NCBI GenBank assembly: GCA_051546255.1
Contig: CP128816.1
Coordinates: 124,001 to 188,000, forward strand
Length of the DNA: 64,000 nt
Reading direction: 5' to 3'
Origin: Meyerozyma guilliermondii
Taxonomy: Eukaryota
Both the position numbers and the translations under genes were made by a program. The notes below the pieces were generated by a model, which did not search any database, had not been told where the DNA came from, and saw nothing but the letters and a program-made list of their open reading frames with translations. Shown here one piece after another: positions 4,840 through 45,970 of this stretch (positions are counted from its first letter, which is position 1; each line of letters starts with the position of its first letter).

Positions 4840-6360
4840 ATGAAATACTCCTCAGAGGTCCCTGATTCTACACCAGCCGTTCTGGGGACGCGGTCCACTT
4901 CGCAGTCGTACCGCAAACTTCTTGCCTCCCATCTGTCTATTTATAATGCACTCAACGACCCCGAACTCAACCAGGGGGTTCAAAACGACACCGATCAGGA
5001 ATCTCATGGCTTAAAATCCCTCAAAGTGACGCCGATCCCCGAATACGATATCCACTTCCCGGAAGCAAAGCTCCCTTCCAGGGTCCCTACACCCGAACTC
5101 CAGTTTTCGTGGCAACTGCTTAGCAATGAATCTGTTTACCGAGATGCTCGTGTGCTCAAAAAGCCGTCGTCTTCGATCTTGTCTTCTACAACTGACGACA
5201 AGGATGAGTCCATGGTAGTAGTTTCCCGCAACGGGGGCAGCCCCAGCTTTGGAGGAGTGATGGTATTCGAAACAGACGAAGAGGACCCGCTGGACGGAGA
5301 GCCTGAGTTTTTGCCGAACCAAAAGTCTTTTGTGATGCCAAAGATGCGGTTATCTGAGCAGCAGATACTAGATATCGTTGTGCTCAGTAACTCGCATGGC
5401 GCGGAATGCGAAGCATTGGTAGATCGAATCAAGAACGATTTGGCCACTACAAAGATGTCTATCGCCAATTTGCCCGTTTCTAGTGTTAGAGACAGTGCAG
5501 ACTTGTCGCTGGCGTTGCGGCAGGCTGACTTGGTGTTCATGATCAACGACGGATCTCCACTATTCATCAAGTGTCTCGAAACAGTGTTTGACCAACCAGA
5601 CTCCATTTCTGCTCCCAAGCTCACGGTGATAAACATGATGAGTGTCAACTACTTTATCAATCTCTTTGATTTGATTGCGTTCATGCGTCCATTTCAAATA
5701 TGGAAGACTTCCAGCTTGCACCAGCAGAACCTCGTTACCAGAATCGAGGACTACATCCTGCTCGAAAGCCTGACGGATTCACTAGAATGCCAAGGCACTT
5801 CTGGCATAGATTCGATCATGGACCTAAGTGTCACCAGAACTTCTGCACCAAACTATAAGCAGATCGAACGACAAATCCGGCATGAATTGCAAGATTCTGT
5901 CAGCTTATCAAGCTCAGATCCTTTAAGGCTCTCATCGAGCTTTTATCATGTCAATATCCTCTACACCATTATCAAGAAGATGTTTCAAAGTCACAATAAT
6001 CCGTCGAATCCACACGATTCTGGCGACTCAAAGTTGTGGTTATTCTGCAGCTTTGCCTTAGGAATTGGCCTCGGTATCACCTTGGCTGGAAGTGCTGCAA
6101 CAGTCTTTGGGTTTTGCGTTTCCAACGTCATTACGCAGGTGGATGAAAAGCCGGAGATTAAGGGTCTCCTGGCGCATCCAGTTCGCGCCGTGGACGTTGT
6201 CGATGACTGGGTTCAGGGAATTGTAGACTCGCAATTCTGCTGCACAATTACGAGATGGTGGGATAAGTTTTCAGGCAGCATGCAACTCTTCAGTTCGCAC
6301 ATGGTTGAAGCCGTTATTGGCGGCTTTGAAAAGGTGGTGTGCATGGCACAAATGGCTTAA
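4840..6360 (+). CDS. ATG32: Mitophagy receptor
   Basis: Atg8-interacting W-x-x-L at 5110-5121 (SWQSL with CTG=Ser), Atg11-binding-like SILSSTTDDKDE, FVMPK motif, and a single C-terminal TM LWLFCSFALGIGLGITLAG. Confidence 0.75.
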   Translation: MKYSSEVPDSTPAVLGTRSTSQSYRKLLASHLSIYNALNDPELNQGVQNDTDQESHGLKSLKVTPIPEYDIHFPEAKLPSRVPTPELQFSWQLLSNESVYRDARVLKKPSSSILSSTTDDKDESMVVVSRNGGSPSFGGVMVFETDEEDPLDGEPEFLPNQKSFVMPKMRLSEQQILDIVVLSNSHGAECEALVDRIKNDLATTKMSIANLPVSSVRDSADLSLALRQADLVFMINDGSPLFIKCLETVFDQPDSISAPKLTVINMMSVNYFINLFDLIAFMRPFQIWKTSSLHQQNLVTRIEDYILLESLTDSLECQGTSGIDSIMDLSVTRTSAPNYKQIERQIRHELQDSVSLSSSDPLRLSSSFYHVNILYTIIKKMFQSHNNPSNPHDSGDSKLWLFCSFALGIGLGITLAGSAATVFGFCVSNVITQVDEKPEIKGLLAHPVRAVDVVDDWVQGIVDSQFCCTITRWWDKFSGSMQLFSSHMVEAVIGGFEKVVCMAQMA

Positions 6361-6486
6361 TAGAGGCTAGTAGAGTAATGTTGCAGTTTATCGATGTAGG
6401 TGGGAGCGCAGTAGAGTAGGTATAGAAGTACACCCGAGACGGTGGCAGCGTCACAAACCGAAATCAATAAGGCACTAACAAACCAG

Positions 6487-6627
6487 GAAACTAGGCTAAC
6501 AAAAGCCATTGATATTTTTTCGCTTGGGTGTGTTTTTTTCTATGTAATGACCGGTGGGGGCCACCCATTCGGCGATCGGTATATGCGGGAAGCTAATATT
6601 ATCACTGGCGAATACGATCTCAGTCGT
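6487..6627 (+). pseudogene. Isolated fragment of the IRE1 kinase domain (subdomains IX-X)
   Basis: Translation ETRLTKAIDIFSLGCVFFYVMTGGGHPFGDRYMREANIITGEYDLS matches the characteristic Ire1 segment. There is no room for the rest of the gene: ATG32 ends at 6360 and the tRNA starts at 6678. Confidence 0.8.
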
Positions 6628-6677
6628 GTAGTATTCGTCGCCTATGATATCAAATCGGTGGGAAATCTGTCATTATT

Positions 6678-6750
6678 GGGCGTATAGCGTAGTTGGTAGC
6701 GCGTTCGCTTCGCATGCGAAAGGTCTCCGGTTCGACTCCGGATGCGTCCA
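6678..6750 (+). tRNA. tRNA-Ala, anticodon CGC, no intron
   Basis: Cloverleaf: acceptor GGGCGTA/TGCGTCC with G3:U70, anticodon arm TTCGC-TT[CGC]AT-GCGAA, T-arm TCCGG-TTCGACT-CCGGA, discriminator A. Confidence 0.95.
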
Positions 6751-6753
6751 TAA

Positions 6754-6766: not shown

Positions 6767-7873
6767 CTATTTGGTGAAATCAAACACCACCTTATTGACT
6801 TTATGGGCATCAAAGATGTCAAAGCCGTGTTTTGCATCGTCCACCAGAATCTTGCAATCGATGAAACTCTCAAAATCTTTCTTGAGTTTTTCAAATACTT
6901 CTAATGCCTCATGGAACAATGACCAAGCATGGCATCTTCCAAAGGAGATGTTCACGTTCTTTAAATAGCATTCAAGCCCGGTAAATGGTAGAGAGTCATG
7001 GGGCATACCAATTGAAGAAATAAAACCATTACCACGAACAGAATCATAAGCGGTGCGAAGAGCTTGAGAAGCACCGACTACCTCTAAAACAGCATCAAAT
7101 CCAATTCCTCCGTCTGTATTTTTGGCAATAAAGTCAGCAAGGGCATCAGGTTCGGTCTGGAAGTTGATCGTCTTATAGGCACCCAATCTTTGTGCCTCTT
7201 CGAGTCGTTGCGGAACACTATCAAGACACACAATCTTCTTGAACCCAAAATGCTTCAATGCTCGAAGAGCACAAAGCCCAACGGGACCCAAGCCAAGCTG
7301 GAGAATCGTTGCGTCGCTGATATCCTGTTGGACAGATCCCCTTGCCAGTTCGTTCTTGAAATGGTTAACAATTTTCTTGGCTCCGTAGTAACCGGTGGTG
7401 AAGATGTCTGCCATAAGAACATAGACAGAATCGTCAGTAGAGTCGTTAGATGGTTTTTTGATAAGAGTCGTTTCAGCATAGGGAATACGGACATATTCGG
7501 CTTGTCCACCCGGCAAGCCGGCTTTTCCAAACGTATTTGTCTTGACACATTGCCCCGAGTATCCATGACGACAGTACCAGCAAGAACCACATTGAATAGT
7601 AAAAGTACTGAGCACCTCGTCCCCAACTTCAAAGCTTGAGATCGCTGACCCTTTCTCCACCACCACTCCCATAAATTCGTGTCCTATAATGTTTCCAACA
7701 GGACCCTTAATGTGCCCTCGGTAGGTGTGCAAGTCGGTTCCACACAAGCCTGAATACGTTACTTTCAAGAGCACATCGGTGGGTTCGGTCAATTTGGGGG
7801 TAGGAACAGACACAGTAGCAATGTCGAATGGTCCCTGGAACACAATGGCCTTCATGGATTCTGGAATTGACAT
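6767..7873 (-). CDS. Zinc-dependent medium-chain dehydrogenase (formaldehyde/alcohol dehydrogenase-like)
   Basis: GLCGTDLH, GHEFMG, structural-Zn CGSCWYCRHGYSGQC, GLGPVG Rossmann motif; ATG at 7873. Confidence 0.9.
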   Translation of the reverse strand: MSIPESMKAIVFQGPFDIATVSVPTPKLTEPTDVLLKVTYSGLCGTDLHTYRGHIKGPVGNIIGHEFMGVVVEKGSAISSFEVGDEVLSTFTIQCGSCWYCRHGYSGQCVKTNTFGKAGLPGGQAEYVRIPYAETTLIKKPSNDSTDDSVYVLMADIFTTGYYGAKKIVNHFKNELARGSVQQDISDATILQLGLGPVGLCALRALKHFGFKKIVCLDSVPQRLEEAQRLGAYKTINFQTEPDALADFIAKNTDGGIGFDAVLEVVGASQALRTAYDSVRGNGFISSIGMPHDSLPFTGLECYLKNVNISFGRCHAWSLFHEALEVFEKLKKDFESFIDCKILVDDAKHGFDIFDAHKVNKVVFDFTK

Positions 7874-7981
7874 GGTAAGTGGGAGTGAAATAATTGCGGG
7901 GGAGATTTTCAACCCGATTGCCGAAGTTACACAAAATGGAGTAAGCCACCTTTAACCGGAGTACGAGTCGGCTGCAACGGC

Positions 7982-45454: not shown

Positions 45455-45970
45455 ATGTCCCACAAGTTCCAGCCCATCAGCGACGTCATAGACACGGCGC
45501 CACGGTCCAAGCACCAATACACAGACATCTACGACGAGCCAGAGAATTTCCTTGAGGTGGAAGTTCGCAATCCGCAAACCCACACTTTTGGCAGGGAGAC
45601 TTTCACCGATTTTGAGATCGTTTGTAGAGTAAGTTACCACAACAACAAAGTTCACAAACCAATACTAACCTAGACCAACATTCCTGCGTTCAAAAAACGC
45701 AACTCCAGGATCCGGAGACGGTATTCTGACTTTGTAGCATTTCGCAAGATACTCGAACAAGAAACTTCCCGAGTAGTAATTCCTCCACTACCCGGCAAAA
45801 TTCTCCTCAATTCCAACAAGTTCAGCGACCTAAACATCGAAAAGCGCCGAGCGGGGTTAGAAAAGTTTCTTTCGGTGGTAAGTGGCCACCCGCTCATTCA
45901 AACTGGCCTGCGAGCCTTGGTGGAGTTTGTGCAAAATGAAAAATGGGATCCAAAGTCCCACGTCTACTAA
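45455..45970 (+). CDS. SNX3: Sorting nexin 3 (PX domain); intron 45629-45673
   Basis: Exon 1 ...[13 protein letters not shown]...[15 protein letters not shown]...TACTAACCTAG 45-nt intron, exon 2 [20 protein letters not shown]...IPPLPGK; stop at 45968-45970. Confidence 0.93.

Follow-up and report, generated by a model that had tools for sequence, protein, structure and literature searches.

The spacer between an ATG32-like gene and a tRNA-Ala(CGC) gene of Meyerozyma guilliermondii holds a 65-codon piece from the interior of IRE1, the gene for the kinase Ire1, that matches the Ire1 protein of the same species complex residue for residue and recurs in public assemblies. On the sequence evidence, we read this fragment as a young, neutral copy-paste capture of a piece of the yeast's own IRE1 at a break beside the tRNA gene, with a probability of about 0.75. 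The stretch of DNA that was analysed, hereafter the window, is 64,000 nucleotides (nt) long, and coordinates refer to it throughout. The fragment and its surroundings are laid out as follows.

4840–6360, + strand: ATG32-like open reading frame (ORF) of 506 amino acids (aa), recognised by its motif layout and ending in TAA at 6358–6360, with an in-frame TAG at 6361–6363.
6361–6432, + strand: 5′ spacer between the ATG32-like stop and the fragment, holding ATG 6378 and GTAGGT 6396.
6415–6687, + strand: stop-to-stop open frame of 90 codons plus TAG at 6685–6687, this stop lying inside tRNA-Ala(CGC).
6433–6627, + strand: IRE1-derived fragment, 65 codons equal at the protein level to Ire1 residues 931–995 of 1170.
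6628–6676, + strand: 3′ spacer leading from the fragment to the tRNA gene, free of any A-run and of likeness to IRE1.
6677–6751, + strand: tRNA-Ala (anticodon CGC), called by ARAGORN and by Rfam RF00005 (64.3 bits against a gathering score of 29) and followed by a T-run.
6767–7951 (stop-to-stop frame), − strand: zinc-type alcohol-dehydrogenase-like gene (Pfam ADH_N, E = 1.1e-25; ADH_zinc_N, E = 4.6e-20), which converges on the tRNA.

The limits of the fragment are set by comparison with full-length proteins. A search for longer proteins with the open frame returned 274 proteins at E ≤ 0.001 among 377 candidates, the best being P0001, an Ire1 of 1170 aa. BLASTP aligned the fragment with residues 930–996 of P0001 at E = 3e-45 and with 65 identities over 67 positions. 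The two mismatches are its two end residues only, so the homologous block is Ire1 931–995, or window 6433–6627, with breakpoints within 6430–6433 on the 5′ side and 6627–6630 on the 3′ side. This block comprises subdomains IX–X of the kinase C-lobe together with the lineage-specific loop SQTEINKALTNQ that precedes them; the open frame outside it has no likeness to IRE1, and the single CTG codon of the frame (6667) lies beyond the IRE1 part.

Structural matches point the same way. The best PDB match of the 90-aa frame is S. cerevisiae Ire1 (2rio_A residues 212–260, E = 3.1e-15), and IRE1 accounts for each of the top 16 PDB rows (E = 3.1e-15 to 8.4e-09), the next best family reaching E = 0.085. 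The resemblance to Ire1 is well outside chance and specific with respect to other kinases; together with the 65 matching residues, it confirms the initial identification of an Ire1 kinase subdomain IX–X segment. The coordinates given there for the open frame, with its stop inside the tRNA, are likewise borne out by the sequence. The extent assigned to the fragment held in part: it does end about 50 bp before the tRNA gene (47–49 nt upstream), but the IRE1 part is 6433–6627 and not 6487–6624. Its true 5′ end, PETVAAS at 6433, lies 54 nt before the start seen earlier, the shorter extent arising because only the conserved part, from ETRL (6487), had been recognised. What is present falls far short of a complete Ire1 gene, as the frame has 90 codons, Pfam Pkinase (PF00069) scores 17.5 bits against a cut-off of 31.7 over profile positions 170–201 (32 of 263), and only residues 931–995 of 1170 are represented. 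Full-length Ire1 relatives also have the KEN/RNase domain PF06479.

The loop identifies the donor. The cluster of P0001 has 21 members, those with names being Meyerozyma guilliermondii ATCC 6260 PGUG_03117, M. guilliermondii and Meyerozyma sp. JA9, and full-length Ire1 proteins of the Meyerozyma guilliermondii complex are present in public assemblies. Identical copies of the 65 residues occur in 12 of the 13 aligned cluster members that contain the region, the thirteenth, P0131, having one E-to-D change. In the alignment, the two nearest sister-species Ire1 proteins, P0002 and P0003 (approximately 77% identical overall), have a quite different loop at SQTEINKALTNQ. Because the identity includes this lineage-specific loop, the donor is the own IRE1 of the M. 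guilliermondii lineage and neither an old gene nor a foreign one.

No second copy of the fragment and no parent IRE1 was found within the 64-kb window. Scanning metagenome contigs with the 67-aa fragment yielded 10 loci, all of them IRE1 genes of other species that do not have the lineage loop, the best reaching 86% identity over fragment residues 22–64. The same scan gave 0 loci from 286 pattern matches in prokaryote genome contigs and 0 loci from 16 pattern matches in viral contigs. Two side observations concern the Ire1 proteins recovered. P0121, an Ire1 at 100% (rounded) to P0001, appears in NCBI as a protein of the basidiomycete Naganishia cerealis (KAJ9101613.1), in an assembly that probably includes Meyerozyma contigs. 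P0136 and P0137 (98 and 123 aa, from ENA assemblies of another yeast) also contain this Ire1 segment, preceded by a loop rich in Asn, Ser and Gly and followed by unrelated terminal residues; they look as though an IRE1 gene had been called in pieces after an interruption or frame shift, and they illustrate how variable the loop preceding subdomain IX is.

The fragment is a genuine, recurrent part of the genome of the species. A search for proteins of similar length returned 3 proteins among 4 candidates. One of these, P0135, is an 81-aa ORF whose start is a GTG matching 6442 and which continues through the fragment and the 3′ spacer into the tRNA; it differs from the window at one position, with Ala for Val at 6628–6630, the first codon past the IRE1 part. 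It clusters with one other protein, P0138. P0135 comes from 1 contig of 1151 bp; P0138, present on 30 contigs of up to 428,316 bp, is the window frame exactly, from the codon after GTG 6442 to the frame end. The 81-aa ORF, spanning the fragment, the 3′ junction and the start of the tRNA, is found in this way on 31 public contigs, 30 identical and 1 with a single change, which rules out a one-off misassembly for the 3′ junction; the 5′ junction is seen in the window sequence alone. The initial annotation had allowed for an assembly chimera. At the 3′ junction, which is reproduced on these 31 contigs of up to 428 kb, that idea is refuted, and we consider chimera or contamination next to impossible as the source of the fragment. 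The non-IRE1 tail of the ORF is covered by the P0135 cluster only, among the best 150 of 1505 HMMER matches to called ORFs in 1.84 billion representatives, and no diverged version of the 81-aa ORF from other lineages appears among those best 150. The proposal of a recent captured gene fragment, made in the initial annotation, is supported by the 65/65 identity including the lineage loop, by the full-length IRE1 in the species complex and by the 31 contigs.

The recipient site is a short interval between the ATG32-like ORF and the tRNA gene. The upstream ORF had been labelled ATG32, a name that is plausible from its motif layout: WQSL (WQLL by the standard code) stands at residue 91, SSSILSS at approximately 110–116 (ILSS at 113), and there is one hydrophobic span at approximately 399–427. 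This layout fits S. cerevisiae Atg32, for which WQAI, Ser-114/119 and a membrane span at 389–411 are given in the description consulted (PMC3164466). The label has no named homologue in its support, however: 0 of 49 homologues bear ATG32 as a source-given name, every named source reading ‘hypothetical’ or ‘uncharacterized’, and the ORF has no Pfam family, no PDB match and no useful Atlas match. The exact protein was found on 39 public contigs. The fragment starts 73 nt beyond the stop of this ORF and probably lies within or just past the 3′ untranslated region of the gene. The tRNA gene on its other side is the only one in the 64-kb window.

No direct repeat bracketing the fragment was found. 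A 9-nt direct repeat, AGTAGAGTA, occurs at 6369–6377 and 6410–6418; we rejected it as a mark of insertion because both copies are in the 5′ spacer and do not bracket the fragment. Neither the fragment nor the 3′ spacer is significantly similar to the 5′ spacer on either strand (shuffle p 0.26–0.88). An inverted repeat at 6596–6615 and 6631–6650 (70% complementary) was considered as a fold-back signature at the 3′ junction and also rejected, as flank–fragment alignments match shuffles (p 0.33–0.70, either strand). Separately, the end of the ATG32-like gene with its stop (6351–6371) and part of the IRE1 fragment (6490–6510) form the two arms of an imperfect inverted repeat of 21 nt with 71% complementarity. 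It is probably due to chance, since the fold of the whole spacer, 6361–6676, has no excess stability over shuffles (z 0.00, 44 of 100 shuffles being as stable).

We propose that a copy of an internal IRE1 piece of 195–200 bp (codons 931–995 of 1170) was inserted in sense orientation in what would have been a spacer of approximately 120 bp between the ATG32-like gene and tRNA-Ala(CGC), while the donor IRE1 would have stayed intact elsewhere. The event would most simply be a templated insertion made during end-joining repair of a chromosome break beside the tRNA gene, and the copy would be selectively neutral. Templated insertions at yeast breaks, as portrayed in two reports on the subject, are approximately 10–1000 bp long and of copy-paste type, with the donor retained (PMC11724301, PMC12214859). 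The open frame can be attributed to inheritance from the donor. It extends 6 codons upstream and 19 codons downstream of the IRE1 part, no more than chance allows, the probability of 19 stop-free codons being approximately 0.4.

The main rival to a break-repair insertion is a retroelement-linked origin, in which IRE1 mRNA would have been reverse-transcribed into cDNA and captured, by template switching or as free cDNA at a break, its landing upstream of the tRNA being owed to tRNA-targeting retroelements. The position is suggestive, as the 3′ junction lies 47–49 nt upstream of a Pol III gene, a distance at which certain tRNA-targeting retroelements of other organisms integrate. Long terminal repeats (LTRs) conventionally begin with TG and end with CA; the 54-nt stretch 6379–6432 begins TGTTG and ends CA (6431–6432) in the manner of LTR termini, but it is much too short for identification. 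Ty cDNA is also among the DNA that one of the two reports describes as inserted at breaks (PMC12214859). Against these points, the fragment is internal to the gene and includes neither end of the mRNA, and it is not followed by a poly(A) run, GTAGTATTCG... coming directly after codon 995 of 1170. There is no LTR-length repeat and no further copy of the flanks in the 64-kb window, and no retroelement ORF adjoins the fragment. We regard reverse-transcriptase capture as unlikely. In its classical form, as a retrocopy or processed pseudogene, it was rejected on the internal position of the fragment, the missing poly(A) and the missing bracketing direct repeat. A literature search on guilliermondii retrotransposons at tRNA genes turned up nothing relevant.

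The initial annotation had also offered a rearrangement scar, and a relic of this kind would mean that IRE1 formerly stood here and moved off, leaving a scrap behind. Spacers adjoining tRNA genes are often rearrangement breakpoints, and a leftover piece of a gene at a site of this kind is in keeping with such a history. An old relic should have decayed, however, whereas this scrap equals the present-day protein, including its fast-evolving loop. Nor do IRE1 loci of other fungi recall the window: in all 10 fungi compared (flanks of approximately 5 kb, or less on shorter contigs), 0 of the 62 window ORFs of at least 150 aa and 0 tRNA genes lie near IRE1, a comparison that weighs little at the distance of these species. 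These loci give no hint that IRE1 once resided here, and we consider an old relic highly improbable. Our literature search found no paper combining guilliermondii, IRE1 and pseudogene.

A capture by break repair would leave the question of whether the fragment does anything. The initial annotation had pointed to ATG 6378, a GTAGGT donor at 6396, a CACTAAC branch point at 6473–6479 and a CAG acceptor at 6484–6486, and each of the four is present at exactly that place. Splicing at these signals would join MLQFID to ETRLTKA... and give a peptide of 72 aa; this peptide, or an RNA acting on IRE1 or ATG32 expression, would make the fragment a functional element. The exact GTAGGT...CACTAAC pair has one occurrence in the window, at the fragment, which lends the model some support. 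The proposed branch point and acceptor, however, are the Ire1 codons K-A-L-T-N-Q and, as the fragment starts at 6433, both fall within inherited IRE1 coding sequence. Relaxed triplets (GTNNGT, NACTAAC, YAG) number 20 on both strands of the window, and the 20 GTAGGT and 6 CACTAAC motifs on the two strands predict approximately 0.4 exact pairs per window by chance. For comparison, the window has one clear intron.

45629–45673, + strand: 45-nt intron in a PX-domain gene, with GTAAGT, TACTAAC (45663) and AG, following ...TDFEIVCR.

The gene that this intron splits presumably encodes a small sorting nexin, which it resembles. Its branch point is merely 5 nt from the acceptor AG, so the similarly short spacing in the proposed 6396–6486 intron is no defect by itself and is matched by a real intron. 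The proposed donor and branch point, GTAGGT and CACTAAC, nevertheless contrast with the GTAAGT and TACTAAC used there.

Translation and RNA structure give little further encouragement. The frame has no in-frame ATG before residue 44, and ATG 6378 opens only 13 codons when unspliced and lies 18 nt past the stop of another gene, where promoter space is lacking. As a slice of the kinase C-lobe core, the 65-residue fragment would be unable to fold alone. On the RNA side, Rfam (E up to 1) finds the tRNA only in the region, and the fold z-score of 0.00 is that of shuffled sequence. The ORF with the same tail is moreover limited to the single P0135 cluster among the best 150 matches noted above. In favour of a function, the frame is open on 31 of 31 contigs with the called ORF, and 0 of 65 residues differ from Ire1. 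Weighing these points, we find no sign of function in the fragment, meaning no usable start codon, RNA family or fold signal, and judge a functional element distinctly improbable. The micropeptide or regulatory RNA that had been suggested is not supported, as the peptide would reach a start codon only through a hypothetical intron built on IRE1 codons and the RNA has no family or fold signal.

The comparison with Ire1 also bears on the age of the insertion. The fragment has 149 non-synonymous sites and 0 amino-acid changes relative to Ire1, which places neutral divergence below approximately 2% (95% bound), barring gene conversion from IRE1. Lineages of the complex differ by 2–6% in the Ire1 protein and by 3–10% in the ATG32-like protein. 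Unless the copy is being preserved by gene conversion or selection, the insertion probably postdates the separation from the JA9-type lineage. Purifying selection or gene conversion would also account for a copy that has no amino-acid change and is nearly uniform over 31 contigs. The copy could thus be one that selection or recurrent gene conversion from IRE1 keeps intact, perhaps transcribed with the 3′ end of the ATG32-like gene or antisense to it, or serving as the source of the 72-aa peptide. The unchanged 65 residues and the frame open on all 31 ORF-bearing contigs are compatible with such a copy without lending it positive support, and we hold it to be very improbable. Were it true, the sensor of the unfolded-protein response and the mitophagy receptor would be coupled by way of RNA, with small RNAs or mRNA pairing as conceivable means.

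One further lineage, represented by P0341 and P0134, is approximately 97–98% identical in the ATG32-like and Ire1 proteins. Its ATG32-like protein, P0341, is on a contig of 592,508 bp, longer than any contig with P0138 or P0135. The insertion may be absent or altered in this lineage, which makes it a candidate presence/absence polymorphism, although a weak lead.

The young copy-paste capture that we favour can be set beside several known kinds of displaced sequence. Classical gene relics are whole duplicates that have decayed where they originally stood. Like the relics of yeasts, the fragment is a non-functional scrap of a protein gene between annotated genes, recognisable by translation alone, but it has not decayed, comes from the interior of its gene and sits at an unrelated site. 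Processed pseudogenes and other retrosequences are dispersed, promoterless copies of coding sequence, and the fragment is one as well; unlike them, it has no poly(A) tract and neither mRNA end, and consists of 65 internal codons only. With NUMTs and retrotransposon cDNA captured at breaks, in the cases that the second report relates, it would share the presumed route, a filler ligated into a break, although single-copy nuclear coding DNA here takes the place of organelle or transposon DNA (PMC12214859). The closest likeness is to the templated insertions of S. cerevisiae, which these reports depict as short, unrelated nuclear DNA in the 10–1000 bp range at one site, with the donor retained (PMC11724301, PMC12214859). 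Such insertions can be a single fragment and can take either orientation. The S. cerevisiae insertions so described were laboratory events at an induced break, whereas the fragment is a natural allele in many isolates of a CTG-clade yeast. In those accounts tRNA genes are enriched near the donors; here the tRNA gene is at the recipient site.

The fragment would gain importance only if it were transcribed or under selection, and it opens no new question otherwise. For annotation it serves as a warning, in that an 81-aa ORF called automatically in these assemblies is a scrap of pseudogene. If our reading is right, the locus is a small natural case of a copy-paste insertion, common among the sampled isolates, of a type whose study has so far centred on breaks induced in S. 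cerevisiae in the laboratory, and the fragment could act as a lineage marker in the Meyerozyma guilliermondii complex.
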